A stretch of 64,000 nucleotides of DNA. It comes from Enterococcus phage VRE9_4. Each line of letters starts with the position of its first letter. The first letter of the stretch is position 1. The stretch lies in sequence record PP680570.1; one strand, written 5' to 3'. Both the position numbers and the translations under genes were made by a program. The notes below the pieces were generated by a model that was given only the letters and a program-made list of their open reading frames with translations, had not been told where the DNA came from and did not search any database. Positions 48,184 to 64,000 of this stretch are shown one piece after another.

Positions 48184-50949
48184 ATGAATGAAAATATTAA
48201 CGTTAAGCAGTACCCTACTTCTTTTTTAGAAGAACTTTTTGAACATAATATTAGAGTAGTGCATACTAAGATACAGCTACTTAATTGGGACGAACAAGTT
48301 TTAAAAGAAATACAAGGTATTGTAAAAAGTGGAAGTTATAATGCTGATGGAACAAGTCGAGTAAGAAGAAATTTATCTCTAACTTTTAGTGTAAAAGATA
48401 GAGACGATGAATTGGTTTATAAATATCTAACCCCAGATAAAAAAATAAAATTATATATAGGATTAGAAAACCAAACTTCTCGTTATCAAGAAGATGAAAT
48501 TATATGGTTTAATATGGGGATCTTTATTTTAACCGAACCATCTTATTCTCATTCTGTTGATACAGCAACTATATCAATTAATGCGCAAGATAAAATGACT
48601 ATGCTAAATGGTACATTAGGAGGCCGCCTTCCAGCCCCAGTAAGTTTTGTAGAAAAAAGAAATGGTAAGAATTATTCCTTCTCTTGGAGAGATATTTTCT
48701 TAAGTGCAGCAGTGAACTTTGGGAATGAGAATCCAGCAAAGGTTATTATTGATTCTGTTCCAGATTATATAAATGAATATACGCAAGTAAAAAATGTGGC
48801 TGGATTAAAAGATAAATTTATTCATATTAATGCTCCTGGAGATGTAGATGGGGAAAGAATTATTACTAGAGCGTGGAGCCCAACTGTTCCAGAAACAGAA
48901 ATTAATTTTTCAAAGGGAGATAGAATCTATAAATTGCGCAGATTTGGTCCACCTGACCCTTCAGCAGGAACGGTAAGTACTCAAGAATCTTATCAAAAGA
49001 ATGTAAACGAACCATTAACTTCTATTTTTGAAGATATTGTAGAAGCTATGAGTAATACTCATGAATTTTTTTATACTCGTGATGGGGATTTAATGTTTCA
49101 GCCTATTAAGAACTATGTTAACGAAGTATTTGATCCTGAAAAAGATACAGATTTAGGATATTTTGCTTATGAATTAGATATGGATGATTTTATTCCTAAT
49201 TATTTAGGTCTTCCTTTTACCTATAATTTTGCCGATAAAAAGACTATTATTAGATATAATAACAATCCTAGTTATACAAATATCAAAAATGATTTTATAG
49301 CAACTAGAGAAACAGGAGAAATTTTAGAAATAGCAATAGACCATAAACCAACAATTAGAGAGATTAAGGAATGGTTTGTTGGAGTTGCAGAAGATTTTAA
49401 TATGGATTCTCCAGAAATGGATTTTTTAGCAAAAGATGGAAGAAGAAGGGAGCCATATAACCCTCAAACTAATACAGTTCCTTTTGAATTTAAAGAAGCC
49501 ACAGCAGGAAAACCAACACAATATATTGAAGTTCCTTTAGATAAAATTCCATGGCAAATTGGTTTAGGGCTTAAAAATTATTTTATTAGAAATATCTATG
49601 GCGCTTCTACTGCAAGAGTTCTTCCTAGATGGGGAAAAGAATGCGAATCAATGATTTTTAAATGGATTGCATCTGAAGATAAAAAAACTTTGTTGCCAAA
49701 TACTGGAATTTTTAATCCATCTTTTATTTCTGTCGGAACTCCATGGTTGGCAGGTTATCCTATGGCTGCAAGCGCAAACACAGAAAATGATGTTGAGTCT
49801 TTAGATAAACAGAATCCTATTTTTACCGATAAGGGTGATTCGGCTTATTGGACTTACTTTCTTGATATTATACCAACAGAATCTAAATTGGGCAAATATT
49901 CTATTGAATTAATTGGTAAACGTTCTATTGGAGTTTCTAATAAACAGGCGACTACCATTTTTAGAACAAACCCTAAAGAATTAATTGTTATTACAGAAAC
50001 AGAATTACAAGATTTAGGCGGAGATATGATATTAGATAATTTAAAAGCACAAGGAGAAGCTTATGCAGTAATTAGAGATATACAAGATCAATTCTTTATG
50101 CCAACAGCAATAACAAAAAATAAAAATGTTATGCCTTATAGTGCTATGGTTGGAGACCCAGGGCGGTTTGAACAATTACGGTATATGTTTGCAGAAGGTA
50201 ATGGAACAGTTCACGAATATCTAGCTGGTGGTAAACATACTGGTACTATTGGGGTAAATAAGAATATGCAAGATCAAGATAAACCTGGATATGTTACAAT
50301 TTCTGCTGGGGTATACACCAATCCAGTTACAAAAAGACAGTTTACTCAAACAGATTTTGCAACCATAAATACTCCTTTTGGTAGTGAAAAAGATTTAACG
50401 GAATATGGTTTTATTGCTTATCTATTGAATAAAAACAGTCGTTGCCCTGATAGTGGGAATCATAATTATTTTGCTGTAGTTAAAAATATAGGTACTCAAT
50501 GGTACTATGCTAAACAAAATAATGGAAAACCCACATGGACTAAATTTAATTGGGATAAAACTAATGACTTTTTGGTAGCAGTATTAAGTAAAACTGTTTA
50601 TAAAGGAAGTGCAGATTTCCCTGATTGGTCCAGTGGTAGAATTGATGATTTTCAAGAATTATTTAATATTAGAGATTCTAAAATGGACAATTTATTTACT
50701 ATTGATGGAGCGGTTGATTTATTTTCTTCTGTTAGAAATTTAATCTATCAACATACTAATACTTCAGATGTAGTAACAATAGATGTATTACCAGTCTATC
50801 ATTTAGAACCAAATACATTAATTTATGCAGAAGATGAAATTTCAAATATATCAGGAATGTTTATGATAACAGGATATTCTATACAATTAAATACAGAAGG
50901 AAGTCCAACAATGAATATTTCTGCAATACAAACAAATCCAGCTATATAA
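48184..50949 (+). CDS. hypothetical large structural-like protein (post-lysis block, gene 5)
   Basis: 921 aa from MNENINVK with RBS AAAGGAGAGAAAG. The track start at 48112 lies inside the terminator hairpin. Confidence 0.5.
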   Translation: MNENINVKQYPTSFLEELFEHNIRVVHTKIQLLNWDEQVLKEIQGIVKSGSYNADGTSRVRRNLSLTFSVKDRDDELVYKYLTPDKKIKLYIGLENQTSRYQEDEIIWFNMGIFILTEPSYSHSVDTATISINAQDKMTMLNGTLGGRLPAPVSFVEKRNGKNYSFSWRDIFLSAAVNFGNENPAKVIIDSVPDYINEYTQVKNVAGLKDKFIHINAPGDVDGERIITRAWSPTVPETEINFSKGDRIYKLRRFGPPDPSAGTVSTQESYQKNVNEPLTSIFEDIVEAMSNTHEFFYTRDGDLMFQPIKNYVNEVFDPEKDTDLGYFAYELDMDDFIPNYLGLPFTYNFADKKTIIRYNNNPSYTNIKNDFIATRETGEILEIAIDHKPTIREIKEWFVGVAEDFNMDSPEMDFLAKDGRRREPYNPQTNTVPFEFKEATAGKPTQYIEVPLDKIPWQIGLGLKNYFIRNIYGASTARVLPRWGKECESMIFKWIASEDKKTLLPNTGIFNPSFISVGTPWLAGYPMAASANTENDVESLDKQNPIFTDKGDSAYWTYFLDIIPTESKLGKYSIELIGKRSIGVSNKQATTIFRTNPKELIVITETELQDLGGDMILDNLKAQGEAYAVIRDIQDQFFMPTAITKNKNVMPYSAMVGDPGRFEQLRYMFAEGNGTVHEYLAGGKHTGTIGVNKNMQDQDKPGYVTISAGVYTNPVTKRQFTQTDFATINTPFGSEKDLTEYGFIAYLLNKNSRCPDSGNHNYFAVVKNIGTQWYYAKQNNGKPTWTKFNWDKTNDFLVAVLSKTVYKGSADFPDWSSGRIDDFQELFNIRDSKMDNLFTIDGAVDLFSSVRNLIYQHTNTSDVVTIDVLPVYHLEPNTLIYAEDEISNISGMFMITGYSIQLNTEGSPTMNISAIQTNPAI

Positions 50950-50978
50950 AAAAAGAGACCGTATAGGTCTCTTTTTTA
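50947..50978. terminator. bidirectional intrinsic terminator at the convergence point of the two arms
   Basis: A-run, AGAGACC-gtata-GGTCTCT, then T-run. It is flanked by the stop codons of the + strand gene (50947-50949) and the - strand ruvC-like gene (50976-50978). Confidence 0.75.
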
Positions 50979-51461
50979 GTTCCAATTAATTTCTTGGTGT
51001 GAAGCATAATAACCAATCATAATTGCATCTGCTTCGTCTTGTGTTGCAGTAATATCAAATATTTCTAACACTTTAGCTTGAGCATTTCTTTTTTGTTCTA
51101 TTCTATTTTTACCTTTAATCTTAGCAAACCCTTTCCATTGAGAAGCATAGATAAAATCAAAATGAATTTCTGGATGAGCTTCTAAAACCCCAACAGCAAG
51201 AGCGCCTTGTAGTTGAGCTAATTGTTTAAAAGTAGTTTTATTTTGTTGCATTTGAATATCTTCAAACATTATTTTTATTTCTTCTTTAGGATATTTTTCT
51301 TTGGTATATTCAATTAATGCTAATACATTTGCTTTCTGTTTTGAATATCTTGAGAAATCATCTCCTTCAGCAGAAAATTTTCCATAGGCAATTAATTCTT
51401 GATTCTTATAAACAGAATAACCTGTTACAACTGTTGCTTGGTCTAAACCTATAAAAATCAT
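50976..51461 (-). CDS. ruvC: RuvC-like Holliday junction resolvase
   Basis: 161 aa. MIFIGLDQATVVTGYSVY matches the RuvC N-terminal D motif. FEDIQ supplies the second acidic residue and DEADAIMIGY the C-terminal DxxD motif. RBS GGGAGGTG. Confidence 0.7.
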   Translation of the reverse strand: MIFIGLDQATVVTGYSVYKNQELIAYGKFSAEGDDFSRYSKQKANVLALIEYTKEKYPKEEIKIMFEDIQMQQNKTTFKQLAQLQGALAVGVLEAHPEIHFDFIYASQWKGFAKIKGKNRIEQKRNAQAKVLEIFDITATQDEADAIMIGYYASHQEINWN

Positions 51462-51544
51462 ATTAAAACACCTCCCTACTAATAAATAGTAAAGAGGTGA
51501 GACATGTTGTCTTTTTTTGTCCTATATAAGAATATAAAAATTAA

Positions 51545-52342
51545 TTATTTTACTCCCGTACTTCCGTGCCCACCAAGACGTTCTCCTTGGGCATTATCGT
51601 CGTCTACCAACAAGAATTTTGAAAATACTCCTTGTCCAATACGCTCTCCTTTTTTAATATAGATAGTTTCAGGTCCAAAATTTAGAAATTGGAACATGAT
51701 ATGACCGTCATTATCAGGATTGCTATAGTAATCACCATCAATAACTCCCACGCCATTTGTTAAAACTAAGAAACGTTTCAATGGATTTGAAGAACGATTG
51801 AATAAAGCTAAATATTCATCTGGCTCCATATAAGCTTTTACTCCTGTTGGAACTAAAACTGGTTTAAATTGCTTACTTAAAGTTTTAATTTCTGAAACAG
51901 CTTCATCACTTAATAACTCTTTTAGAATTTCATTGTTTTGATTTTCTAAATTTAGAGTATTAAATAATGCTGTATAAGAGGCAGGGTCCGAAGCTAATTC
52001 TTCTAAATCAATACCCTTATCTTTTAAAAGCTGAGTAATCTTGCTAAGGAAATCTGTAACTTTAGAAAATAGTTCTAAAGATTCAACTTCTGTTAAATGT
52101 TCCATAACTTGACTAATTGAATCTGGGTCTTGTAAATCAATATTAAATCCAAATAAATCTTTAGAAAGAATACTTGAAATTGACTTTTTATGAATTTCTT
52201 TGACATCCCAAATCGAAGGAATTACAATATCATCTGATGCTTCAAAATCATATCCTGCTGCACGAGCAGTTGCTCGAACAGGCAGGTTAATATTTTTATC
52301 TTCAAAACCTTTTGCTACTTCAAATCCACGTACTTTTGTCAT
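51545..52342 (-). CDS. dut: dUTPase with ~95-aa helical insertion between motifs I and II
   Basis: 265 aa. Motif I is RAAGYDFEA, II is NRSSNP, III is GVIDGDYYSNPDNDG, IV is GERIGQGVF and V is RLGGHGSTG. The spacing between I and II is about 130 aa, versus about 35 aa in canonical trimeric dUTPases. Confidence 0.7.
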   Translation of the reverse strand: MTKVRGFEVAKGFEDKNINLPVRATARAAGYDFEASDDIVIPSIWDVKEIHKKSISSILSKDLFGFNIDLQDPDSISQVMEHLTEVESLELFSKVTDFLSKITQLLKDKGIDLEELASDPASYTALFNTLNLENQNNEILKELLSDEAVSEIKTLSKQFKPVLVPTGVKAYMEPDEYLALFNRSSNPLKRFLVLTNGVGVIDGDYYSNPDNDGHIMFQFLNFGPETIYIKKGERIGQGVFSKFLLVDDDNAQGERLGGHGSTGVK

Positions 52343-52344
52343 AA

Positions 52345-52812
52345 TTATTTAGTCTCCTTTTTATCTTTTTGTGTAAAATCTTTAATTGATTCAACAATCC
52401 AATCATTGCTAACTAACTTAAAATAAGTAAGTCCAATATAAAGTCCAAGCTCTCCATGAGAAGTCTTATCCATATCAATATCTCGTACATCCATCATATC
52501 GATCATATCAGCTTCTACAATATCATTTTCATTTTTATCTTTAATATTTTCTTTTGGTTGGCAAAAACTAGAATCTTTTAAATAACCTAAGATATGTTGA
52601 GCCACTTCCTTATCTGTAGACTCAGTTCGATCAAAAATCACATTATAGTTAATATCTCGTGAATTAAGCCAAAAATATTTTCCAAAAGATTTTCTAACAA
52701 AGGTTAGAATAGCTTGATAAATATCTTCTTCCGATAATTTCGGTGCCTCCTTTAAAGCTTGTGTAATTAAATCCGATTTTTTCATTGTTTGTCCATCATT
52801 TTTCTTTTTCAT
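52345..52812 (-). CDS. hypothetical protein
   Basis: 155 aa with RBS AAAGGAGAATAA, in an operon with dut and the kinase. Confidence 0.55.
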   Translation of the reverse strand: MKKKNDGQTMKKSDLITQALKEAPKLSEEDIYQAILTFVRKSFGKYFWLNSRDINYNVIFDRTESTDKEVAQHILGYLKDSSFCQPKENIKDKNENDIVEADMIDMMDVRDIDMDKTSHGELGLYIGLTYFKLVSNDWIVESIKDFTQKDKKETK

Positions 52813-52817
52813 ATTAA

Positions 52818-53396
52818 TTATTCTCCTTTTAATTTTTCCATAATTTTATCTTGTAAAGCACTTAATGCCATCCATACAAAGGGTGTATCTGAAAAATAGT
52901 AAGCATCTGGTTTTCTATCAATTTCAGCATAATCTTTTTTATCTGCTTCAATTCGCCGTTTGATTTCATTTACATCAGGGTTCTTTTGTCTACCCTTTGC
53001 TCGTTCCATTCTAATTTTTTCGTCTGCTACAATTTCTATTAACATAACATTTGTATCATCTGACTTACCTACCCAATCAGCTACTTCAAATGCAGTTTCT
53101 TTTTCGCAAGTCATTAAATAAATAGATTCTTTATCTCTAGCTTGAGCAGTAATACCAAAGTAAACACCATAATTCCAATTATTAAATACCTTAGGAAATA
53201 GAATTTCTTTTTTTTCTACTCCTTTTTGAAAAACCTCATCAGTTAAAAATTGATAATAAGATTCTTCTTTGTCAGAACGCTTAGGTCTTGTTGTTGGTCG
53301 TTTGGCTAAATAAGCATCTACGCCAAGAGAGCCAAGTAATTTCCTTGCAATATAATCTTTACCAGCTCCTGTTTGTCCATATAAGATTACTAACAT
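52818..53396 (-). CDS. P-loop nucleoside/nucleotide kinase (dNMP kinase-like)
   Basis: 192 aa with Walker A GQTGAGKD at the N-terminus. RBS CAAGGAGAGATAAA. Confidence 0.5.
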   Translation of the reverse strand: MLVILYGQTGAGKDYIARKLLGSLGVDAYLAKRPTTRPKRSDKEESYYQFLTDEVFQKGVEKKEILFPKVFNNWNYGVYFGITAQARDKESIYLMTCEKETAFEVADWVGKSDDTNVMLIEIVADEKIRMERAKGRQKNPDVNEIKRRIEADKKDYAEIDRKPDAYYFSDTPFVWMALSALQDKIMEKLKGE

Positions 53397-53427
53397 TTTA
53401 TCTCTCCTTGTTTTAACTTTATAATTA

Positions 53428-53456
53428 ATTATAACATATTATATATTATTTGTCAA
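53428..53456 (-). promoter_or_regulatory. consensus sigma-A-type promoter (TTGACA-17-TATAAT) for the kinase-dut-ruvC operon
   Basis: The minus strand reads TTGACA aataatatataatatgt TATAAT. A second TTGAC lies 5 nt upstream. Confidence 0.6.
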
Positions 53457-53521
53457 TCTTTCGTCAAGATCCCAGTTTTAAGCACTGAGACCTTTAACAT
53501 AAGATAATTAACCTCGTCGGA

Positions 53522-56500
53522 TTAAGCTGCTCGTTCTGTTTTCAGAACAATACTTCCATCATCACGAGTTTCAGTAATTAATCCAATTTTTGGAGTTGCT
53601 GTATCATTATATGCTCTAGGAATAAATTGATCGTCACGTCTAAAACCAGTAATAAATAGTTTGTTTCCTCTTTCAAAGAAAGATTTTTCTACAACAGTTT
53701 TCTTCCCTGTTGATGTTCTTTCTGAAATTTGTTTATCCCAGTAAGAAAAATCTCCTTTGTACATTTTAACTAAAACAACAGTTCCTTCTGGAGTTAAAAC
53801 ATCGATACTTGCTTTAACCTTATTTTTACCAATAATAGTTCCAACAATTCTATTTAATTTTAACTTAGAAAAACTTGCGTAAGGATTGATTTTTTGTGCC
53901 TCTCTTGGAAGAAGTTCAAAATTATCAATTCCATATCTATCTACATCCACACAATTTAATTCATGTTCTGTATAATAGAAGTTCATAGATTCCATTTCCC
54001 ATCTTGCATATGAATCGTGACCACCATATGAATCAAATAATTCTAACATTTCATCAAAAAATATTTCTTCTAATAAAGACTCTTTATTCTCTCTTAACCA
54101 ATTTCTAACAGTATCCATTTTTTTATCATAGAACTTACTCCATCTATCTCGACTCATCACAGTCCAATAACGATCCTCATCACTAAACGTTTCAATAAAT
54201 TCATCTAAACCAATCGAAGATAAAAAGTTTTGCGCCCGATCATCAAGTCTAATAATTTGTCCGCTCTTGGTTAGAACTTCATTTACATAGCGATTAAACT
54301 CATAAATTCGTTTTTCTTCTTGTAATGATTCAGGGAATCTATTAATTTTCATAACCAATGGGACTTGCGTCATTGTAAGATTTTTTCTAAGTCCTGTCAT
54401 CATTTTAGCATATTTTGCTAAAGTAATTTTTCTATCAGAGCTATCTATTTCTCTAAAAGCTCCTGCCTTAATTAATGTTAACATTTGCATTTTATTTGGG
54501 TTTGTCTTTCTGACAAAATCCGCTAAAGAACTAAATGGTCTTCCCTCGAAAATTTTCTGGATAAATTCATAACCAATCCCAGTTAATGGTCTTAAACCAT
54601 AAGAAATAAAATTACCTTCTACATTAGGAGAAAAGTTTGATTCTGATTTATTTATATCTACCATTTCTACTTTAATCCCATGTTTAATAGTATTTCCTAA
54701 CGCTACTGCCATTTTAGAATAGTCTGTTGAAGTTCCTGTTTCATCTCCTGAGTTGACAATCAAACAGCCACAGTTCCAATAAATAGATGGATAATGATTA
54801 AATAAGTTTAATTCTTGTAGTGCAATAATTGTATATCCAATTGTATGCAAAATTGAGAAACTATATCCCATTTGAACACTAACTGCTGAATCCCAAATAT
54901 AATGAACTGTTTCATTTGAGCATACTGCTTGTTCAAAAATTTTGGCTCTAAGTTCTGGAATTTTATCCATTAGTTTTTTACCAATAATTTTACGTGCTGC
55001 ATTAGCTTCTGTTTCTGTAAAATTACAAATGTTTTCATCCATTAAAATCAACATTAATTCTTCCTGTGTATTTGGAACTCCATAAGAAGATAAGAAATGT
55101 TTCTCTAAGATAGGAATTTCATCTGCTGGAATATTATATTTTTCTAATTCTTCGTACCAAAGTTGGATATTTTCTTTAAATCTTGCATACTTCTCTAGTG
55201 GCATTTCACCATTTTCAGTTGCCATAAGTCTCATTAATGAATTCAATGCTGCTGCATCTTTTACATCTTCTGGTTTACCCTTCCTTACAGCTTCTTTTCC
55301 TACAGGTGTATCAAGCTGAAAAATATCCAGAACTTTATTATCCCATGTTGGTTCCCACAATTCTTTACTATAATCTAATACATCAGGATGCAATGTATTA
55401 AAATATGTTTCTTTTAAAGAACCCTTCCATTCCATTCTATTGTCTTTAATCAATAAATCCATTGTTTGACGAATTTTATCTAAAGCTTCGATGGATAACA
55501 TATCCATTTTTAATGCTCCCATATCATCACTGTCATGATAATCCCATTGAGTTACTTCTAAGTCGTTAGGAGTTTTCATCATAGCATTAATATCTGTATA
55601 AGGATGATTAAAAATATAAACTCCTGAAGCATGAGAACCTCTACTTTTTACCATTCCTTCAATTGCTAAAGCTGTTTCTAAATAATTTTCGTATTTATTA
55701 ATTTCATTAATAAACTCAGAAACTGGTTTACGACCTTTTTCTGGATTCCCATAAACCATATCTTTTAAATTCCAATCAAAACCACGTTCATTTGGAATCA
55801 AACCACTTAAATAACTTGAAACATCATCACTTATACCAAGTCCTCGTGCAGCAGTAGCTAATGCTGATTTTGCTTTTTCGGTTCCAAAGGTTGCGATATT
55901 TAAAACTCTATCATGACCAAAAAAGTTTTTTAACGCCAATAAAATTTGTTCTCGTTTAGAACCTTGTGAATCTATATCAACGTCAGGTAATTCTGGACGA
56001 CTTTCAGCTAGATGTCTCCAACTCATATCTCCCACATATGGAATAGGATCTACTTGGGTAACGTCTAACAACCAGTTTGACATAAATCCCATAGCTGAAC
56101 CACGAGATACTCCAACTAATGAATCTCCTTCATCCCAAATTAATTCAATAATTTTTTGAGCTGTATTATAATAAGACGTCATAGGTTGTTTTAAACGTTC
56201 AGAAATTTTTACCAGTGTAGTAGCTTCAATTTCCAATTGTTCTAAATATCTTTCATTTAATACATTTCTAATTTCTAATTGGTTTAGACAAGTTCTACTC
56301 CAATATAAATCTTGGTCTTCGTCAGAATTTAGCAACATTGTTAAATATTTATATTTACTTAAATCAATATTATTATATGTTTTGCTTAATTCTGGTACAT
56401 CAACAGGAACATATGGAATTTCTTGTTCCTTAAACAAAGAATAATGTTTGATCCCACTTCTAATTTTTTCTAAGTTATCTAACATTTCCTGAAATTCTTC

Positions 56501-57376
56501 TTCTGAAAAATCTAATAAAAAGTATTCCTTAACTTGTTCAGGTGGCATCATATAAGCAGTATAATAGAAATCGTCAACTTCTCGCTCTGCTTGCTTACTA
56601 TTCAAATAAGCTTTATGAATTTCTCTATCTGCTTCAGTAAGATAATGACTGTCTGTACTAAATACAACTGGAACATTCATTGCCTTTCCAAGTTTCCAAA
56701 CTCTTCTATTTACATATCTTTGCTCTTCTGAAGTATTTGGAGCAATTTCTAAATAAAAATCTTCTTCGCCAAAAACTTCTTGATTCCATAAAACAAAATC
56801 AACAATTTTTTGTTTTTCTTCTAAGATTTTTTCTTGATTAATTTTTTCTCCAAATGGAACTTCTTCTGCCGCTTTAATTTTCAAAAAAGCTTGAGCTTCG
56901 AAACTTCCAAGACAAGCTGTAGAAGATACAATATGTCCTTTTCCATTTTCCTGTTCCATAATTTCTTTTACTTGTTCACGAGTAATTGGAGTTCGTTGTA
57001 AGCCTCTATCCCAATAACTATTTTCCCAAGCTTTAGAAGACAACATTCTTAAAATTTTATGTCCTTTTTTGTCTTTTGCAATCAATAAATGATGATAATA
57101 TTTTTGTCCCATTTCTAAATCTTCGACTAAATAAATTTCATCTCCAAAACCAATTGTAAAAGATTCATGGTCTATACGACCTTCTTTTTCTAATTTATCT
57201 CTATAATGCATTAATTGAGCGTGACCAGATAATCCTTCGTGGTCTGTTAAAACATAACCGCTTAAACCTAAATCTAAAGCATAATCAACTGATTGTTTAA
57301 TATCATTAATTGAATCAGCGAATCCTAATAATGCATTACTAAAACTACTATGATTATGAATTGAATAGTATCCCAA
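53522..57376 (-). CDS. dnaE: DNA polymerase III alpha subunit (DnaE-like, N-terminal PHP domain), apparent TTG start
   Basis: 1284 aa. The PHP motifs HNHSSFS ... DHEGLSGH lie at the N-terminus and the protein has the polIII-alpha core length. RBS AAGGAG sits 9 nt before TTG. Confidence 0.85.
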   Translation of the reverse strand: MGYYSIHNHSSFSNALLGFADSINDIKQSVDYALDLGLSGYVLTDHEGLSGHAQLMHYRDKLEKEGRIDHESFTIGFGDEIYLVEDLEMGQKYYHHLLIAKDKKGHKILRMLSSKAWENSYWDRGLQRTPITREQVKEIMEQENGKGHIVSSTACLGSFEAQAFLKIKAAEEVPFGEKINQEKILEEKQKIVDFVLWNQEVFGEEDFYLEIAPNTSEEQRYVNRRVWKLGKAMNVPVVFSTDSHYLTEADREIHKAYLNSKQAEREVDDFYYTAYMMPPEQVKEYFLLDFSEEEFQEMLDNLEKIRSGIKHYSLFKEQEIPYVPVDVPELSKTYNNIDLSKYKYLTMLLNSDEDQDLYWSRTCLNQLEIRNVLNERYLEQLEIEATTLVKISERLKQPMTSYYNTAQKIIELIWDEGDSLVGVSRGSAMGFMSNWLLDVTQVDPIPYVGDMSWRHLAESRPELPDVDIDSQGSKREQILLALKNFFGHDRVLNIATFGTEKAKSALATAARGLGISDDVSSYLSGLIPNERGFDWNLKDMVYGNPEKGRKPVSEFINEINKYENYLETALAIEGMVKSRGSHASGVYIFNHPYTDINAMMKTPNDLEVTQWDYHDSDDMGALKMDMLSIEALDKIRQTMDLLIKDNRMEWKGSLKETYFNTLHPDVLDYSKELWEPTWDNKVLDIFQLDTPVGKEAVRKGKPEDVKDAAALNSLMRLMATENGEMPLEKYARFKENIQLWYEELEKYNIPADEIPILEKHFLSSYGVPNTQEELMLILMDENICNFTETEANAARKIIGKKLMDKIPELRAKIFEQAVCSNETVHYIWDSAVSVQMGYSFSILHTIGYTIIALQELNLFNHYPSIYWNCGCLIVNSGDETGTSTDYSKMAVALGNTIKHGIKVEMVDINKSESNFSPNVEGNFISYGLRPLTGIGYEFIQKIFEGRPFSSLADFVRKTNPNKMQMLTLIKAGAFREIDSSDRKITLAKYAKMMTGLRKNLTMTQVPLVMKINRFPESLQEEKRIYEFNRYVNEVLTKSGQIIRLDDRAQNFLSSIGLDEFIETFSDEDRYWTVMSRDRWSKFYDKKMDTVRNWLRENKESLLEEIFFDEMLELFDSYGGHDSYARWEMESMNFYYTEHELNCVDVDRYGIDNFELLPREAQKINPYASFSKLKLNRIVGTIIGKNKVKASIDVLTPEGTVVLVKMYKGDFSYWDKQISERTSTGKKTVVEKSFFERGNKLFITGFRRDDQFIPRAYNDTATPKIGLITETRDDGSIVLKTERAA

Positions 57377-57411
57377 TAAATATAACTCCTTTCATAATTC
57401 CTTATATATTA

Positions 57412-57458
57412 ATTATATCATTTAAAATATAAAAAGTCAAGTAAAATAATTACTTGAC
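57412..57458 (-). promoter_or_regulatory. composite terminator-promoter cassette copy A: hairpin GTCAAGTAA-aataa-TTACTTGAC plus TTGACT-17-TGaTATAAT
   Basis: A perfect 9-bp stem followed by T5 on the minus strand terminates tdk. The -35 TTGACT lies in the hairpin arm. The extended -10 TGATATAAT is at 57412-57420. Confidence 0.65.
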
Positions 57459-58022
57459 CAATTCATTATAGTTAAAATAACATTTTCTACATACAGGAAC
57501 ATATTCGTTATCTCCAATTAAAATTTGTTCACCTCTATAAACAGCTTCTCCATTAATTGTACGTAAATTCATAGTTGCTTTTTTATCGCATAATGTACAT
57601 ACAGTTTTTAACTCTTCTAATTTATCTGCAAATTCTAATAATGCCTTAGAACCTTCAAATAAATTATTTTGAAAATCATTTTTTAATCCCCAACAGAGAA
57701 CAGGAATATTGCCCTCATCTACTACTCCAGCTAAGGTAATTACCTGTTCTCTTGATAAAAACTGGGATTCATCCACTAAGATAGCATGAACCTTTTCTTT
57801 TTTAGCTTTTTCTAAAATTTCTTCTCTGCTATCATTTAAGTATTCTGCCTCAATATTAAAGCCAGTTCTAGAAACGATCTTTTTAAAACCGCTTCTAGTA
57901 TCTAAATCAGAAGTATAAATTAATACATTTTTGCCTTGTTGAGCATAATTATAAGCAGTTGTAATTAAAGATAAACTTTTTCCTGAGTTCATAACTCCAT
58001 ATTTAAAATATAATTTTGCCAT
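57450..58022 (-). CDS. tdk: thymidine kinase
   Basis: P-loop YGVMNSGKS and a C-terminal Zn-ribbon (CTLCDKKA ... CRKCY). The preferred start is MAKLYF with GGGAGA 7 nt upstream. The track's longer form starts at a TTG at 58037. Confidence 0.85.
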   Translation of the reverse strand: MAKLYFKYGVMNSGKSLSLITTAYNYAQQGKNVLIYTSDLDTRSGFKKIVSRTGFNIEAEYLNDSREEILEKAKKEKVHAILVDESQFLSREQVITLAGVVDEGNIPVLCWGLKNDFQNNLFEGSKALLEFADKLEELKTVCTLCDKKATMNLRTINGEAVYRGEQILIGDNEYVPVCRKCYFNYNELVK

Positions 58023-58024
58023 TT

Positions 58025-59206
58025 CTATTTCTCCCAAATTCCACTATTTTTATCATAAGCTAATACTAATTTTTCCGAAGCCCTAGTAACCATTGTATAT
58101 AACCATTTTCTATGATTTTTTCCATTTAATCGTTCTTCAATTCCTAAAACTTTAGAGTATTCACTACCTTGAGATTTATGTGTAGTAATACAATATCCAT
58201 AATCAATATAATTAACTCTAGCATCACCTTTTGCAAACTGATTTACAATATAAGATTTTTGGTTTTCTTTAATAAAAGGAAGCATATCATACTTGATAGA
58301 AAACTCTCCACCACCAAATTCTGGAATAAAACGAACTCGAGCGATCTCAATATCTTTTCCCATTGCGTTCCCCATTAATTTTTCACTTTTAAATACGCCA
58401 CTAGAAAAATTAACTTCACCTAACATACCATTAATAAGAGGAAATCCTTCTTCATTTAAAATATCCCAATTATTATTAGTTACAATAATTTTATCTCCCT
58501 CTTGAGGAGTAGGTGAAACAAAACCCTTGGCTAAACGGATTTCATCGTTGTAAAGTTTTCTGGTTGCGTTTCTTCCACACAAAACTTGGTCTGCCCATAA
58601 AAGCATACCTACAGAAATCTCTTCTTTTGGAACCATCTTAACAAAATCATCAGAAAAAGGTTTTATAACCTCCCCTTCTCGAATCATTTTAGATAGTTGA
58701 ATAATACTATTCCCTTCCTCTTGGCGCATGATTTCATCTAAGAAAATGTGAGGATTTTTTAACATACCATTATCTGCTCCTACAGGAGGTAGCTGCCCTG
58801 GATCTCCAAGCATTATAATATGAATACCTAAATCTGCTATATCTTTTAATAGGTCTTCTGGAACCATTGAAATCTCATCTATTAAAATTAATTTAATTCC
58901 TTGATAGTTTTCAATAGGAAGCTTTTGATGAATAAAGTTATTATTAATTTTGATAGATTTGTATCGCAATTTGTGTAAGGTTTGTGCTGCTGGAAATCCT
59001 GTTTGTTGAAGACGATAAGCTGCCTTACCTGTAAAAGCTCCAACCATATATTGTAATGGTGATAGCTCTAGTGCATTAATAATTTTTTTTGCTAAAAAAG
59101 TTTTACCTGTTCCAGCAAAACCAGCGATTGTAGTATAACGTTCTCCACTTTTATATCGTTCTACAGCAATTTCTAAACCTTGTTTTTGTTTACTTGTTAA
59201 TGACAT
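58025..59206 (-). CDS. RecD/Dda-like SF1 DNA helicase
   Basis: 393 aa with Walker A GFAGTGKT and DEISMV (Walker B). The C-terminal QGSEY-type motif is typical of the AAA_30/UvrD_C_2 family. Confidence 0.7.
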   Translation of the reverse strand: MSLTSKQKQGLEIAVERYKSGERYTTIAGFAGTGKTFLAKKIINALELSPLQYMVGAFTGKAAYRLQQTGFPAAQTLHKLRYKSIKINNNFIHQKLPIENYQGIKLILIDEISMVPEDLLKDIADLGIHIIMLGDPGQLPPVGADNGMLKNPHIFLDEIMRQEEGNSIIQLSKMIREGEVIKPFSDDFVKMVPKEEISVGMLLWADQVLCGRNATRKLYNDEIRLAKGFVSPTPQEGDKIIVTNNNWDILNEEGFPLINGMLGEVNFSSGVFKSEKLMGNAMGKDIEIARVRFIPEFGGGEFSIKYDMLPFIKENQKSYIVNQFAKGDARVNYIDYGYCITTHKSQGSEYSKVLGIEERLNGKNHRKWLYTMVTRASEKLVLAYDKNSGIWEK

Positions 59207-59238
59207 TTAATCATTCCTTTTTTATTCATTATATTTAT

Positions 59239-59283
59239 ATTATATCATTATAAAAATAAAAAGTCAAGTTATTTACTTGACTT
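59239..59283 (-). promoter_or_regulatory. composite terminator-promoter cassette copy B: AAGTCAAGT-tattt-ACTTGACTT plus TTGACT-18-TGaTATAAT
   Basis: A perfect 9-bp stem is flanked by A/T runs. It contains the stop of the small gene. The -10 lies at 59239-59244. Confidence 0.65.
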
Positions 59284-59397
59284 TTTATTTCGTTTAGTTT
59301 TAATTTGTTCCCAAGCAATTAAAGCGTTTTTCATTTGACCTGGGTTACGAGCTAAATATTCTGAAACAAATTCTTTTTTTGTTACTTTGCGTTTCAT
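59269..59397 (-). CDS. small basic protein (42 aa)
   Basis: MKRKVTKKEFVSEYLARNPGQMKNALIAWEQIKTKRNKKSSK with RBS AAGGAGTGATAGAT. It is not in the ORF track. Confidence 0.45.
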   Translation of the reverse strand: MKRKVTKKEFVSEYLARNPGQMKNALIAWEQIKTKRNKKSSK

Positions 59398-59424
59398 ATC
59401 TATCACTCCTTAAATTTATATGTA

Positions 59425-59432
59425 GGGGGGGG
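59425..59432. repeat. G8 (C8 on coding strand) homopolymer tract in the 150-bp intergenic region
   Basis: GGGGGGGG followed by TGG. This is exceptional in an AT-rich genome. It lies about 28 nt upstream of the small gene's ATG. Confidence 0.8.
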
Positions 59433-59546
59433 TGGTTTTAGGAAAAAGAAAATAGGCAGAAGGTAAATATGGCTCAATTCAAAAAATAGCATGAACCATA
59501 TTTTTCTCCTAGATTAGCGTCCGTAGACGATAAAAATCCTTTAATA

Positions 59547-61286
59547 TTAGAAAATGTATTTTTGCGCTGATTTCAATTCTAAATCTGCAACAAACATTTG
59601 TAGGAACGTACGACCTCTAAAAGTACTCATCTTAATAGTTCCAACTACATCAATTTTTGATTGCTGGTTTTTCATAAGTTTTTGTGCTGTTTCAGTGCTA
59701 ACACCCTTAAACTTAATAAACTCCAGTCCTCCAGCAGAAAATGTTATCTTATGATTATCAAATTCTCCACCCACAACTATATCATCTTTTTTAACAGGAA
59801 TATCTCTTAAAACAAAAGTAGGCTCTTCCAAACCTTTTCCCCAAAATGTAGCATAACGAGTAATTTCTGTTAAATTTTCTTTAGACATTTGTTGCCAAGA
59901 AATATCAAAATCTACAGAATATATTGGTTCAAAGACAATTTCTGATAATTGTTTATTGAAATATTCTACAATTTCATCCTTTTTGTCAGCAGCAAAGGCA
60001 AATCCGTGAGCTCCTTCGTGACCTTCTGCAAATTCAAATAATCCACTTTCTTGCTCAAATCGTTTTAATTCTGGTAAGTCAGATTTATCATCTCCACGAG
60101 CCGACCCACCAAAAAAAGTTTTTCCATCTTTTTCAAAATACGTTCCTACTAAAGTTGGCTTTTTATATTTTGAAACAAATTGATTGGCAATTAATCCTGT
60201 AAAGGTTTTTGGAAATTCATTTTTAGTATCTAAAATTAGAATCTGGTTGTCAGTTAATTTATTTTCTTCAATTTGAGCTTCTAATGAATTAAAGGCATTA
60301 TCTCTCAATCTATCTTGTCGAGCTTTAATATTATTCATTTTCCGAACAACTGCTTCATGGAATACTTCTGTATCTCCCTCTTTAGCTCCACGTTTTGTCG
60401 AGGGTACATCATAAGGTTTATCACTAACCATAGCTTTTGTAACTTCTTTTTTCTCGTCCATTGTTCCTACTCGTGTTACTGCATTAATCATTGGGACAAT
60501 AGAAAAAGATAAACCAATTGGTGTTACCTGTCCTCCAAGATTAAATGACTTAGCCTTATATAATGCTTTTAAAAAAGTATTATGAATATTTCTCATTCCT
60601 TGCTGAACAATATAAATTGTTTCTAAAGTATTAATTTCGATCATATCTCCTACAATCCCAATAGCAGCAAGATCATAATATTTTTCTGAGTGGTCGAAGC
60701 CATACATTTTATCATACAACGCAGCAAACTTTAAACAAACTCCTGCACCTGATAATTTCTTATTAGGATAATCATCTAAAGAAATATTTACCATTGTAGC
60801 ATATTCTGAAAATTTAGGTGCATCGTGGTGATCCAAAATTACAATAGGTATATTCAACTTTTCTACAATATACTTATGAACATCATATTCATTCGAAGAA
60901 CAGTCAGGGGCTATAATTAAATCTACATTATGTTCCCCCATAATATCTTCCACTGTTTTTACAGGAATTCCATGTTCTTTGTTCTCTTGGAAAACAATTA
61001 TTATTCTATTTGTTATTTCTTCTTTATAACAATCTTTTAAATAATTGTAGACAATAGCTGTAGATGTATAACCATCTGCATCAGGGTCCTGAACTAATAA
61101 TATTTTATCTTTTGAATTTACGATCTTGTCGTGAATAATTTCAGCAACCTCTTTCAAATTTTTTATTAAAAGAGGATCGTGTAACGCTGAATCATTTAAT
61201 CTAAAAATCTTATCTGGGTTTATTCCTCTATTTATGAAAATGTTAATAATGTTGTCATCATTTTTTCCAATTAGTTGCGTTCTCAA
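59547..61286 (-). CDS. recJ: RecJ-like DHH-family ssDNA exonuclease (TTG start, TTGA overlap with primase stop)
   Basis: 579 aa with DPDADGYTS, ILDHHD (DHH motif) and a DHHA1-like GGSARGD ... GHEGAHGFA. Confidence 0.75.
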   Translation of the reverse strand: MRTQLIGKNDDNIINIFINRGINPDKIFRLNDSALHDPLLIKNLKEVAEIIHDKIVNSKDKILLVQDPDADGYTSTAIVYNYLKDCYKEEITNRIIIVFQENKEHGIPVKTVEDIMGEHNVDLIIAPDCSSNEYDVHKYIVEKLNIPIVILDHHDAPKFSEYATMVNISLDDYPNKKLSGAGVCLKFAALYDKMYGFDHSEKYYDLAAIGIVGDMIEINTLETIYIVQQGMRNIHNTFLKALYKAKSFNLGGQVTPIGLSFSIVPMINAVTRVGTMDEKKEVTKAMVSDKPYDVPSTKRGAKEGDTEVFHEAVVRKMNNIKARQDRLRDNAFNSLEAQIEENKLTDNQILILDTKNEFPKTFTGLIANQFVSKYKKPTLVGTYFEKDGKTFFGGSARGDDKSDLPELKRFEQESGLFEFAEGHEGAHGFAFAADKKDEIVEYFNKQLSEIVFEPIYSVDFDISWQQMSKENLTEITRYATFWGKGLEEPTFVLRDIPVKKDDIVVGGEFDNHKITFSAGGLEFIKFKGVSTETAQKLMKNQQSKIDVVGTIKMSTFRGRTFLQMFVADLELKSAQKYIF

Positions 61287-62440
61287 TATATATCATACTC
61301 CTCTTCATCTGTTCCTATGGAATCCCATAGCTCTAATTTTTCTACAAAATTTTCATCTATCTCTTTGTATGTTTTTCGTTCTCTATATAATTCTGCAAAA
61401 ACTTCAAAACCACAATCTACTGGAGAATCTTTATATCCTGAAATCATATTAGTATCTAAAATAAAACTTATTTTAATACCATCTTCATTAGTTCCAAAAC
61501 GTTCTTGTATTGTTTTAAAAATTCCTATTAAGTTATCATATTCTCTATCATACTTCATAGATTGAAATTGTCTATCAAAAGCAAAAATAATTTCTTCTAC
61601 ACCTAATTTTTTTAATGCTTCATATTGATGCCGTGAAAAGTGCATACCAAATGCTGCTACACCAATATTTTTCTTTGGAGATAATAAATCATCCATTTTC
61701 ATGACCGATTTCTCTCCCTCAAAAACAATGGCTTTTCTTTCTCTTCTAATATTATTAGCATTAAAAAATAAACCGAATAAATAAAATGATAGTGGCGAAG
61801 AATACAGTATCCCTTCACGTTCAACGGGTCTATATTTTCCATATCGTTCTATCATTTCGCTATTAGCTATTCTTTGTCGTATACCTAATAGATTTCCTTC
61901 TTCATCTAAATGAGGAAACATTAAACCCGTTGTTGCATAATTATATCTGATATTATATTTATGTTGAGTTTCTGCTGATATACCTTCTCGTTCCCAATCA
62001 TTTACAATAATTCTAGGATAACGTAAATAAGGTTTTTTGTCATAAAACATAAAGCTTGGTTCTTGATATTCAATATCTAAATCATCATTATGCAACATAT
62101 CATTATCGCCTAAAGTCATAAACTCTTGTGATTGAATATAAATATCAATAGCCTCTTCTAATAAAAGTTCTTCATGATATTCATTCATATACATTTTAGA
62201 TAATAATTCAAAAATATCAAATCTACCACAACCAGTGTAACAATTAAATAATTTTGTATTATCATAATAATAAAGTTTATGACTGCCCTCACCTTTATGA
62301 TTATGACAGACAGTTTCAAAGACTAATTGGTGTTCATCAACCCAATTACCTTGAATACCTTGTCCTACCAAAAAATCATATACTTGTTGGATAGACATTC
62401 CAGCTTTTATAGCATTCTTATCACGTCCATATTCTGCCAT
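61283..62440 (-). CDS. dnaG: DNA primase (DnaG-like, zinc-binding + TOPRIM)
   Basis: 385 aa with a CHC2-type cluster (CHNHKGEGSH ... CYTGCG) and a TOPRIM-like IVFEGEKSVMKMDD. Confidence 0.65.
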   Translation of the reverse strand: MAEYGRDKNAIKAGMSIQQVYDFLVGQGIQGNWVDEHQLVFETVCHNHKGEGSHKLYYYDNTKLFNCYTGCGRFDIFELLSKMYMNEYHEELLLEEAIDIYIQSQEFMTLGDNDMLHNDDLDIEYQEPSFMFYDKKPYLRYPRIIVNDWEREGISAETQHKYNIRYNYATTGLMFPHLDEEGNLLGIRQRIANSEMIERYGKYRPVEREGILYSSPLSFYLFGLFFNANNIRRERKAIVFEGEKSVMKMDDLLSPKKNIGVAAFGMHFSRHQYEALKKLGVEEIIFAFDRQFQSMKYDREYDNLIGIFKTIQERFGTNEDGIKISFILDTNMISGYKDSPVDCGFEVFAELYRERKTYKEIDENFVEKLELWDSIGTDEEEYDIY

Positions 62441-62482
62441 ATACCTACAACCTACTTTTTTAATTATTTTTTATACATTTAT

Positions 62483-62528
62483 ATTATATCATAATAAAAA
62501 TAAAAAGTCAAGCTAATTGCTTGACTTT
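62483..62528 (-). promoter_or_regulatory. composite terminator-promoter cassette copy C: AAAGTCAAGC-taatt-GCTTGACTTT plus TTGACT-17-TGaTATAAT
   Basis: A perfect 10-bp stem containing the dnaB stop, followed on the minus strand by a T-run. The -10 lies at 62483-62488. Confidence 0.65.
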
Positions 62529-63981
62529 AAAAAGCACTTTTTCGATCATCTACCGTTTGGTTACGACGCTTAACATTTTTTTCTGCTGCTTTTTGAACCT
62601 TAATAGAAGTAGCATCAATTCCAATAGGAATATTATTACTATCTGTAATAAACAAACCTTTACATCTACAAGTTCCCAAATCTACGTCGCACCACAATTT
62701 AACACCAGCATATTTACCTCGTCGTACTTTATAAAAGCTAATAATATAGTTTGGACGAAAATATCCTTGACTTACAAATGTTTCTACAGCTTGTTCATCA
62801 ATAGGTCTAATTTTAACTGCAATCATTCCTACATCAATACGATCCGCAATAGCTTTAGATCCTCGAAGCAAATTTTGATTAAGTTCTCCTTCAAGATAAT
62901 CTCCATTCACCTGAGTTCCTGACTCAATAAAAATTCCTAGTTGGTTTGCTAAATCTTTTAATTTAGTTGACAACATAAATAATACTTGGTCTTCACGTAA
63001 TTTCATACCATTTGAAATGGAAGCAATCTCTGCTAAAAATTTCATAGATGTATGAATATAATCAAAACGGAAATATTTAACATCATGTTCTCGATAATAT
63101 TTTCTAATAGTAGCTTCAATTTCTGTAACAGAGAAATCTGAAATAATTTCAAAATATAACGGAGCCTCAGACATAATTCTGGCTCCTTCTCTTAATACTT
63201 TTTCTTGGTCTTCATCAAATTTACCATCTAAAATGATATCTTCAGGAATTCCTGTAAGAAATGCTAATGCCATTGTTTGGCACTCTTCTGAATCTAACTC
63301 TGTAGAAATAAATAAAGAACCTTCTGCTTCTCCGTTGTCAACCCAAGCTTGTTTATGTTGGTCATAAATTACAGGAAAGGCAGAATAACAAGCTCGAGAC
63401 ATCATAATACGAGACTTCCCATTTCCTGTTGGAGCTGAGTACAAATAGAATTTACCTAACCGATCTCCACGAGTTATCGTATCCATCATTGTAATTGGAG
63501 AAGGTGAACCAAAATCTGGGGCTTCTTTAAAAGAATCAATTAAATTTAATAATCCTTCACCAGCTTGAATACTTTCAGAAGCTACATTACTTGCAGAAGT
63601 ATCCATAATATGTTGAATATTATCTGAAATTTCATTTGCCATATCCTTTAAAGAAGTATGTTCAAACCAATTTTGTTGGTAAGCAATTAATTCTTGATTT
63701 TCTGTATCCCAATCATAAAACTGTTTTACAGATACGCCATTTTTCTCAAGAGAGCGAAGTAGAGTTAATTTTTTAATTGTATCTAGGGCTGGCTCAAAAG
63801 CTGTTGGATCTCCTACTTGTGATAGTTTATCAAAGTAATATTCACCTTGTCGAGCATATTTCCCTTCAGCAATTTCTATCTCTTCATCAAATAAAGTATT
63901 AATTTGCGGACGACCTTGAATATAGCTTTCTATTACACCTAAGCTAAATTTTGGATGTCCCATTGAATATAAATTGTACAT
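62527..63981 (-). CDS. dnaB: DnaB-like replicative helicase
   Basis: 484 aa with Walker A SAPTGNGKSR, an N-terminal DnaB-like domain and a RecA-like C-domain. Confidence 0.8.
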   Translation of the reverse strand: MYNLYSMGHPKFSLGVIESYIQGRPQINTLFDEEIEIAEGKYARQGEYYFDKLSQVGDPTAFEPALDTIKKLTLLRSLEKNGVSVKQFYDWDTENQELIAYQQNWFEHTSLKDMANEISDNIQHIMDTSASNVASESIQAGEGLLNLIDSFKEAPDFGSPSPITMMDTITRGDRLGKFYLYSAPTGNGKSRIMMSRACYSAFPVIYDQHKQAWVDNGEAEGSLFISTELDSEECQTMALAFLTGIPEDIILDGKFDEDQEKVLREGARIMSEAPLYFEIISDFSVTEIEATIRKYYREHDVKYFRFDYIHTSMKFLAEIASISNGMKLREDQVLFMLSTKLKDLANQLGIFIESGTQVNGDYLEGELNQNLLRGSKAIADRIDVGMIAVKIRPIDEQAVETFVSQGYFRPNYIISFYKVRRGKYAGVKLWCDVDLGTCRCKGLFITDSNNIPIGIDATSIKVQKAAEKNVKRRNQTVDDRKSAF

Positions 63982-64000
63982 AATTGCATAAGAGACTTTT

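Follow-up and report, generated by a model that had tools for sequence, protein, structure and literature searches.

The elements considered here are three short cassettes in Enterococcus phage VRE9_4 (PP680570.1), each of which combines a candidate intrinsic terminator with a promoter at a junction between replication genes. The window, i.e., the whole stretch of DNA that was analysed, comprises 64,000 nucleotides (nt) with a G+C content of 32.5%. Structural genes occupy its plus strand (1-50949), and the genes for replication and nucleotide metabolism are found on the minus strand from 64000 down to 50976. Across the 6 kb around the cassettes, the sequence is 96-97% identical to that of six Enterococcus phages of 138-142 kb (H1, EF1, EF5 and VRE9_1 to VRE9_3), of which EF1 is listed as an unclassified member of the Caudoviricetes. 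A literature search on these particular Enterococcus phages returned nothing usable.

All genes of the replication arm discussed here are encoded on the minus strand. In the direction of transcription, the arm includes a DnaB-like helicase gene (62527-63981; Pfam DnaB_C, E = 3e-12; also labelled DnaB-like in VRE9_1), a gene for a 385-amino-acid (aa) protein (61283-62440), a RecJ-like exonuclease gene (59547-61286; Pfam DHH and RecJ_OB) and a 42-aa open reading frame (ORF; 59269-59397) with a good ribosome-binding site (RBS; AAGGAG-N8-ATG). These are followed by a superfamily 1 (SF1; RecD/Dda-like) helicase gene (58025-59206; Pfam AAA_30, UvrD_C_2 and PIF1), a thymidine kinase gene (tdk; 57450-58037; Pfam TK, E = 3e-47) that overlaps the helicase gene by 13 nt, and a DNA polymerase (Pol) III alpha-type gene (53522-57376; Pfam DNA_pol3_alpha, PHP, HHH_6 and finger domains), with a Pfam-confirmed guanylate kinase gene beyond it. 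The gene names proposed in the initial annotation thus hold for DnaB, RecJ, the helicase, tdk and Pol III alpha, but not for the primase. The corresponding 385-aa gene has no assigned function: its product matched zero families in a Pfam search and is a hypothetical protein in VRE9_1, and its synteny is conserved across the clade. Likewise, the 42-aa ORF gave zero Pfam matches and is annotated as a hypothetical coding sequence in VRE9_1.

The cassettes all lie on the minus strand at 57459-57412 (site 1), 59291-59239 (site 2) and 62528-62483 (site 3), where the sequence bears out their initial placement, and they share a common design. Each contains a GTCAAG…CTTGAC hairpin, and the last six bases of the 3' arm form the -35 hexamer TTGACT of a promoter with an extended -10 TGaTATAAT, an arrangement that was correctly recognised at the outset and is found at all three sites. 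The spacer, first given as 17 or 18 nt, is 17 nt in every case; it opens with the T-run that follows the stem and closes with TGA, which supplies the TG of the extended -10. Hence, TGATATAAT comes after the U-tract and spacer at all three sites, giving the promoter TTGACT-17-TGATATAAT. The use of TTGACT instead of TTGACA is explained by the layout itself, as the sixth base starts the U-tract.

At site 1, the terminator (57459-57424) consists of the hairpin GGTCAAGTAA-TTATT-TTACTTGACT (57459-57435) and the U-tract TTTTATATTTT, and the stem of 10 base pairs (bp) has a G·U as its outermost pair. The overlapping promoter for the Pol III alpha gene (57440-57412) has its -35 at 57440-57435, TG at 57420-57419 and TATAAT at 57417-57412, so that the full element reads GGTCAAGTAA-TTATT-TTACTTGACT-TTTTATATTTTAAATGA-TATAAT. 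At site 2, the terminator (59291-59250) is built on the core AGTCAAGT-AAATA-ACTTGACT (59282-59262), which an A5/U5 extension of A/U pairs lengthens to 59291-59253, followed by the U-tract TTTTTATTTTTAT; this terminator is also called on the plus strand by the terminator scan. The promoter for the helicase-tdk pair (59267-59239) comprises a -35 at 59267-59262, TG at 59247-59246 and TATAAT at 59244-59239, within the full sequence (AAAA)AGTCAAGT-AAATA-ACTTGACT-TTTTATTTTTATAATGA-TATAAT. At site 3, the terminator (62528-62494) was called as AAAGTCAAGC-AATTA-GCTTGACTTT with 10 pairs, four of them G-C, around the core hairpin AGTCAAGC-AATTA-GCTTGACT (62526-62506), and is again followed by TTTTTATTTTTAT. 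The promoter for the 385-aa and RecJ-like genes (62511-62483) has its -35 at 62511-62506, TG at 62491-62490 and TATAAT at 62488-62483, and the full reading is (AA)AGTCAAGC-AATTA-GCTTGACT-TTTTATTTTTATTATGA-TATAAT.

Counted past the -35 T that closes the core stem, the U-tracts read TTTTATATTTT, TTTTATTTTTAT and TTTTATTTTTAT at sites 1-3, respectively, and the T5 run includes that T. The stems are 8-10 bp long, or up to 17 bp with the A/U extension, the loops are 5 nt, and the terminator scan flags all three sites. Folded with their flanks, the hairpins reach -13.5 (z = -5.8), -18.0 (z = -8.8) and -12.8 kcal/mol (z = -5.0) at sites 1, 2 and 3, and the core stems alone -11.2, -8.3 and -10.5 kcal/mol. 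The description of the hairpins as perfect AAGTCAAGY stems of 9-10 bp is therefore accurate in that a hairpin is present at each site, but not for site 1, which reads GGTCAAGTAA and carries the outer G·U. The promoters match the consensus at 11 of 12 hexamer positions in addition to the TG, and the 29-nt promoter sequences are identical to one another at 25-28 of the 29 positions in pairwise comparison.

Rather than standing immediately after stop codons, as initially described, the cassettes overlap them. The last tdk codons make up the 5' arm at site 1, which ends with the tdk stop TAA (57452-57450), the stop of the 42-aa ORF (59271-59269) sits in the site 2 hairpin loop, and the A-run at the base of the site 3 stem shares bases with the DnaB stop (62529-62527). 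A same-strand gene thus ends at each hairpin, with a U-tract directly 3' of the stem. A hairpin with a direct U-tract at a gene end would, by class definition, count as an intrinsic terminator. On the promoter side, all three sites combine TTGACW, a spacer within 17 ± 1 bp, TGn and TATAAT with a same-strand gene that has its own RBS; the start codons lie 32-42 nt past the end of the -10, and RBS and start codon fall 26-36 nt past the predicted transcription start. The leader ATAAAT[A/G]TA is common to sites 2 and 3, and the site 1 leader TAATATATAAGGAA is shared with a promoter at position 113063 of VRE9_1.

Promoter-like hexamer pairs are common at 32.5% G+C, and a generic promoter scan returned fewer sites in the window than in shuffled sequence (64 compared with 85), as might be seen if the cassettes were a by-product of AT-rich composition. 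Yet the palindrome GTCAAG-N3-13-CTTGAC occurs three times in the 64-kb window against 0.04 expected (100 shuffles), and zero-mismatch copies of the extended promoter TTGACT-N14-TGNTATAAT occur at the three sites and nowhere else in it. Furthermore, the covariation and intergenic placement described below hold over hundreds of elements. The likelihood of a chance origin is negligible, and as far as statistics allow it is already refuted. A search of the window with a fixed 6-nt loop, AAGTCAAG-N6-CTTGACTT, gave zero matches because loop and inner pairs together measure 7 or 11 nt.

The motif search proposed with the initial annotation was run on the genome of a close relative, on orthologous junctions and on public collections, and the layout recurs in all of them. 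In the complete VRE9_1 genome, joined from four pieces, ~40 TTGAC(N)-17-TGnTATAAT promoters were found, almost all of them outside the structural module and oriented with the genes. Fifteen of 42 strict promoters overlap a same-strand terminator-like hairpin, where ~0.6 would be expected by chance; overlap was defined as a hairpin 3' end lying -6 to +18 from the -35 start under the strict terminator definition, and the chance figure was estimated from 161 such hairpins in 2 x 140 kb. These composites display three layouts. In type A, to which the three sites and the VRE9_1 elements at 113063 and 67463 belong, the 3' arm contains the -35 and the spacer begins with the T-run. Type B has its hairpin a short way upstream, with a -35 (in many cases TTGATT) that falls within the U-tract or follows it directly. 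In type C, typical of the early cluster of small ORFs at 124-130 kb, the -35 is found in the loop or 5' arm, with the T-run in the spacer. The near identity of the trio is mostly forced, given that the hairpin has to complement TTGAC and be followed by a T-run, and that the -10 is the consensus. At the unconstrained positions, identity among the three is 0.55-0.77, ranking 25th to 210th of 741 promoter pairs, and the trio is one version of a genome- and clade-wide layout, not a special device of the replication arm. A recent duplication of the trio was considered as well and rejected, because the unconstrained identity is no higher than in many other promoter pairs.

A fourth junction in the window, between the Pol and guanylate kinase genes (minus strand, 53505-53428), is a relative of the three sites without the terminator tail. 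The 3' arm of its long hairpin (53505-53456, -20.5 kcal/mol) ends in CTTGAC without a U-tract behind it, and the consensus promoter TTGACA-17-TGTTATAAT (53456-53428) leads into a leader box at 53427-53412. This box belongs to a near-identical 20-nt sequence found right after the -10 at eleven promoters (TATAAT-TAATTATAAAGTTAAATAAG), in most copies with the RBS directly next; besides the window copy, it is located at VRE9_1 50635, 64574, 73482, 83222, 98354, 98856, 103954, 107661, 109895, 112079 and 116956. The box may represent a standardised leader or 5' untranslated region, or a binding site at the transcription start.

Since a hairpin can occur in this setting without a canonical terminator tail, as at the fourth junction, where a strong hairpin precedes a consensus promoter, it could be argued that the promoters are real and the hairpins weak terminators that most polymerases pass. 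The arm would then be one long, internally boosted operon, and the hairpins would mainly shield 3' ends, whether processed or terminated, from exonucleases. The core stems, with only 3-4 G-C pairs and -8.3 to -11.2 kcal/mol, fit such a role. However, an uninterrupted T5 lies directly 3' of the stem at the three sites and in the orthologues of the Pol junction, where it was observed freely; it is also present in all 126 matches listed from the IMG/VR database, where the search pattern demanded it. In addition, the A/U extensions bring the hairpins to -12.8 to -18 kcal/mol, and comparable stem-loops of the PeSL (promoter-early stem-loop) elements of T4-like phages, discussed below, matched the termination of rrnB T1 in a lacZ assay (PMC2839356). 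Overall, hairpins that chiefly stabilise or attenuate appear unlikely, if worth keeping in mind.

Beyond the six phages of 96-97% identity, blastn in its 'distant' mode found nothing apart from T4-type tdk genes, and distant relatives were instead reached through a helicase protein search of IMG/VR. This yielded 34 loci, two of them nearly identical and 32 with 30-43% helicase identity, many on contigs of 100-190 kb, and the order DnaB - 385-aa gene - RecJ - helicase - variable segment - Pol III alpha is kept among them. In a distant subclade (helicase 37-40% and Pol ~41-47% identical; L021/22/27, L024/25/36, L032, L033, L034 and L038), the junction before Pol again carries a type A element, built as AGTCAAG - variable inner stem - CTTGACT-T5 - promoter. 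Its inner stems include CGGG/CUCG, CAGG/CUUG, CGAG/CUCG, UGGGU/ACCCA and UGGGG/CCCCA, with folding energies of -17 to -22 kcal/mol. L023 has a variant before Pol in which the -35 is TTGATT and pairs through G·U, as well as a type A element of unrelated sequence before the helicase gene. The remaining relatives show type B or lack a clear hairpin at this junction. The slot between the helicase and Pol genes, which holds tdk in the window, is ~285 to 2780 nt long among relatives (L007-L038); of the loci compared, tdk homologues occur in it in the Enterococcus phage group only, and the window tdk has T4-type tdk genes, at ~66% identity, as its nearest matches at the DNA level.

The substitutions seen among the close relatives are confined to the loop, the spacer and the N or R positions of TRTGN, apart from those that convert a stem pair to G·U, and zero affect the -35, the -10 or the TG. 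In VRE9_1, for example, an A->G change in the 5' arm of site 3 creates a G·U pair, and an A->G change in the 3' arm of site 2 a U·G pair. The site 3 loop (62518-62514) reads AATTA in the window and TAATT in VRE9_1, L005 and L006; the two are reverse complements of each other, as if inverted. L006 also carries an insert of ~950 nt with a GIY-YIG-type homing endonuclease at ~1540-2495, inside the 385-aa gene, that is absent from the window, VRE9_1 and L005. EF1 and EF5 probably carry the same insert, as their matches are split in two and span ~960 nt more. The insert could be an intron or split the gene, and its location at a cassette was ruled out for EF1, EF5 and L006, as it sits within the 385-aa gene.

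Repeated motifs at gene borders could also be kept mainly as homology for modular gene shuffling, with the transcription signals as a vehicle, as in the PeSL model. Support for this comes from the early ORFan region, where VRE9_1 (114961-138440) was compared with an IMG/VR relative (L267, IMGVR_UViG_3300045988_176702 76309-97025) and indel breakpoints fall inside such promoters. In one case, an indel of two ORFs joins two promoters within their spacers, leaving the relative with a hybrid in which the -35 TTGACTTATCC of one is joined to TTTTTTACTTGyTATAAT of the other; a one-ORF indel crosses over within the -10/leader, and in a third case an ORF has been replaced between a leader and the -10 that comes next. 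A type C hairpin shows a compensatory A-U -> G-C change between the two genomes. The interval from the helicase to the Pol cassette also varies from ~285 to 2780 nt among relatives. At the three sites themselves, however, zero indels or rearrangements were seen between the window, VRE9_1, L005 and L006, a short spacer loss in L006 aside (see below). The nearby ~950-nt GIY-YIG insertion falls away from the cassettes, the sites lie in a syntenic core module and not in a plastic region, and the unconstrained identity of the trio (0.55-0.77) is unremarkable among the 741 promoter pairs. It is therefore improbable that the three cassettes are retained chiefly as linkers. The early-region composites appear to behave like PeSLs, and the three core sites would be their transcriptional, non-shuffling members.

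Base pairing was assessed across 15 elements, with arms cut to 11 nt in register from the -35 and joined by an artificial loop; a whole-hairpin MAFFT alignment misaligned the 5' arms and was not used. Paired cells amounted to 92.7% compared to 83.2% in shuffles (0/500 reach it), both partners vary in six of the 11 pairs, and the covariation score was 0.412 versus 0.222 in shuffles (0/500). When the registers were slid, pairing dropped to 16-47%. Independently, the strict pattern GTCAAG-N3-20-CTTGACTTTTT-N10-TGNTATAAT, which includes the T5 run, was found in at least 120 IMG/VR stretches, with several copies on some contigs. Among the 126 matches listed, to which the following counts apply, there are 95 distinct inner segments, and at least one, two and three extra pairs are formed in 93%, 60% and 27% of these, compared to 41%, 16% and 4% of shuffled segments. 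Every Watson-Crick type occurs at the first inner pair. A same-strand ORF starts 5-150 nt past the -10 in 80/95 elements (median 31.5 nt), and one ends at the hairpin in 74/95 (median 9 nt before it). Although 21/95 elements lie within an open frame of 80 codons or more, this count carries no information, since the reading frame of the gene that follows is often uninterrupted 5' of its start. A Pol homologue of this clade was present in the fetched flank of only about 20 loci, and the layout is therefore not confined to this phage lineage. A further 109 stretches with the strict motif come from bacterial genomes and metagenome-assembled genomes (MAGs), mostly low-GC Ruminococcus, Clostridia, Bacilli and Saccharibacteria (incl. 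Candidatus Saccharibacteria), and could be prophages, mis-binned phage contigs or cellular genes; there, at least one extra inner pair is formed in 66%, compared to 93% in viral contigs. Base pairing is thus kept by compensatory change both in the orthologues before Pol and in the 95 variants, a pattern which indicates that pairing of the hairpin is under selection.

A perfect inverted repeat over the -35 of three promoters of functionally related genes is also what an operator might look like, and the initial annotation had raised the possibility that a regulator binds the palindrome. Such a dimeric protein, of phage or host, would recognise AGTCAAG…CTTGACT and control the overlapping promoter, and VRE9_1 does encode a small protein annotated as a transcriptional repressor. 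An operator would nevertheless be expected to keep its half-sites at a fixed distance. Instead, GTCAAG and CTTGAC are separated by 7 nt at sites 2 and 3 and by 11 nt at site 1, and in other phages the gap ranges from 3 to 20 nt. Conservation of the half-sites is limited to the -35 and its complement, with the adjacent positions covarying, and the single-arm A->G changes in VRE9_1 maintain RNA pairing as G·U and break the DNA symmetry. The same layout is even formed by unrelated sequences, e.g., AATTAAGAGTAAATAGC…GCTATTTACTCTTGATT in L023 and AATCAACTAAGAG…CTCTTAGTTGATT in VRE9_1. A role as operator is thus highly improbable. Taken together, the selected pairing, the restriction of conservation to bases dictated by the -35, the free spacing of the half-sites and the single-arm changes that keep pairing only as G·U argue for an RNA hairpin and not a protein-binding palindrome.

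Based on the observed anatomy, non-random occurrence, intergenic same-strand placement and selection for pairing, the cassettes are best read as intrinsic terminators fused to sigma-A promoters that split the arm into separately started units. A probability of roughly 0.7 is assigned to this reading, which was already put forward in the initial annotation and is supported by all sequence-level and comparative tests run. At the RNA level, the GTCAAG…CTTGAC hairpin followed by UUUU(U)AU(A/U)UUU would end the upstream unit, probably with some leakage, and leave its mRNA with a protective 3' end. At the DNA level, the 3' arm of the palindrome would serve as the -35 TTGACT of a near-consensus promoter for the host sigma-A (17-nt spacer, TGnTATAAT), the U-tract would double as the upstream half of the promoter spacer, and the next unit would start ~7 nt past TATAAT. 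The arm would thereby be divided into four units, namely the one ending with DnaB, the 385-aa gene with RecJ and the 42-aa ORF, the helicase with tdk, and Pol III alpha. Placing the terminator on the promoter may spare extra DNA and, from general knowledge of transcriptional interference, stop read-through polymerases from occluding the promoter. The elements are presumably early or middle and dependent on host RNA polymerase (RNAP), because the promoters follow the sigma-A consensus and the phage group has its own sigma factor, annotated in VRE9_1.

Several points weigh against this reading or limit its reach. Termination, initiation, efficiency and timing at the three sites are what we infer from the sequence. 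The modest stability of the AU-rich cores (3-4 G-C pairs, -8.3 to -11.2 kcal/mol) suggests that termination may be partial and insulation incomplete. Deep conservation, as judged from the relatives compared, holds for site 1 only: the DnaB/385-aa and RecJ/helicase junctions of the distant relatives were searched for type A and only other promoter arrangements were found, so that type A at these two junctions is limited to the Enterococcus phage group. At the site 3 orthologue of L006 (726-770), 6 nt are lost from the T-rich spacer, turning TTTTTATTTTTATT into TTTTTATT; the terminator is intact, but TGATATAAT now stands 11 nt from the -35, and the only plausible promoter left is a shifted TTGACT-16-TATAAA. 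The promoter therefore either tolerates change or is dispensable, unless the deletion, which could be a natural variant, is an assembly error. Finally, the in-register construction of the 15-element alignment leans towards structure, and therefore the independent IMG/VR survey was given more weight.

Judged by their sequence, the cassettes are a further example, in a Gram-positive phage lineage, of a kind of regulatory cassette that has already been described. PeSLs of the T4-like phages RB49/phi1, PST and nt-1 are composite terminator/promoter elements located between a stop codon and the next Shine-Dalgarno (Arbiol et al. 2010, PMC2839356; Comeau et al. 2014, PMC4122927). They fall into five positional subclasses, including one with the stem-loop over the -35, and both their promoter and terminator activities were measured with lacZ fusions in E. 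coli (PMC2839356), while the activity of the cassettes described here is predicted from sequence. PeSLs have also been proposed to play a role in modular shuffling (PMC2839356; PMC4122927). Both systems pair a near-consensus sigma-70 promoter with a stem-loop terminator in many copies per genome. The three sites fit the anatomy of one short motif reaching from stop codon to next Shine-Dalgarno, and the repetition is likewise found, with 15 of the 42 strict VRE9_1 promoters being composite. A further likeness is that indel breakpoints in the early region of this phage group fall inside cassettes and create hybrid promoters. The differences concern host and lineage, an unclassified 140-kb Enterococcus group compared with T4-like myoviruses of Gram-negative hosts, as well as the stems, which here are AU-rich and built on the -35 complement with the U-tract in the spacer, whereas those of RB49/phi1 follow a Gn-loop-Cn design. 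Moreover, the three sites are located in the conserved DnaB-to-Pol core and not in hyperplastic ORFan regions, and no shuffling was seen there; elsewhere in the phage, composites are found next to small ORFans (VRE9_1 124-130 kb).

Two further systems share parts of this organisation. The RNA-seq map of kayvirus vB_SauM-515A1, also a large Gram-positive phage, gave the early-promoter consensus TTGACW-17-TRTGN-TATANT and many transcription units, with at least one promoter (p98) placed immediately after a terminator (t97; PMC7698491). The three sites follow the same grammar of TTGACW, 17-bp spacer, TRTGN and TATANT, but the phages belong to different families, and PMC7698491 reports no overlap in which the -35 is the 3' arm of a terminator. 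Lambdoid morons are promoter-gene-terminator units that have been contrasted with PeSLs (PMC2839356). As in morons, a dedicated promoter and terminator bracket the genes and would insulate them from their neighbours; in contrast, morons are accessory inserts, often antisense and without a shared flanking motif, whereas here a repeated motif encloses core replication genes of the same orientation.

It could be speculated that the zero-distance fusion has been selected for kinetics and is more than compaction. Post-termination recycling of RNAP, with one-dimensional (1D) re-initiation, has been described in vitro with E. coli RNAP on synthetic templates, and the authors expect it to vary with the distance between terminator and promoter (Kang et al. 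2020, PMC6978380). By analogy, a terminator beside a promoter of the same sense could hand the polymerase on, with the difference that recycling was shown in vitro only. A polymerase releasing its RNA in the U-tract would already be positioned over the spacer of a consensus promoter, and might then rebind sigma and re-initiate by 1D recycling while staying on the DNA. Each transcript would be reset, with a new 5' end, a new stoichiometry and a protected 3' end, scarce host RNAP would be kept on the phage genome, and, in the early region, the repeated cassettes could double as sites at which shuffled genes cross over. Such selection seems doubtful at present. If true, the layout, which recurs in well over 100 unrelated contigs of low-GC phages and in MAGs of low-GC bacteria, would represent a general terminate-and-restart device.

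The arm contains some additional features outside the cassettes. Between the RecJ stop and the 42-aa ORF lie ~150 nt of apparently non-coding minus-strand sequence (59546-59398) with a C8 run (59432-59425) followed by CATATAAATTT; Rfam gave zero matches there, as it did across 50900-64000 at a permissive threshold. Further along, a 13-bp minus-strand hairpin (51499-51469, -18.4 kcal/mol) holds in its 3' arm the Shine-Dalgarno GGGAGGTG of a Holliday-junction resolvase gene that starts at 51461, with TTTTAAT and then the ATG 3' of the hairpin. Possible readings are a fused terminator-RBS element and a structure that controls translation.

The cassettes provide a testable transcription map for the replication module of a poorly studied group of Enterococcus phages of ~140 kb, which are related to phages that were isolated against vancomycin-resistant E. 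faecium. If the elements should prove inactive, little would be lost, as the arrangement itself is ordinary. As candidate insulating parts of 45 bp, they may be of use in Gram-positive synthetic biology, and they would offer a natural substrate to probe the effect of terminator-promoter distance on polymerase recycling. More broadly, the analysis suggests that PeSL-like cassettes are not peculiar to T4-like coliphages but common in low-GC phages, here in a very economical version in which the -35 hexamer would also be the foot of the terminator stem.

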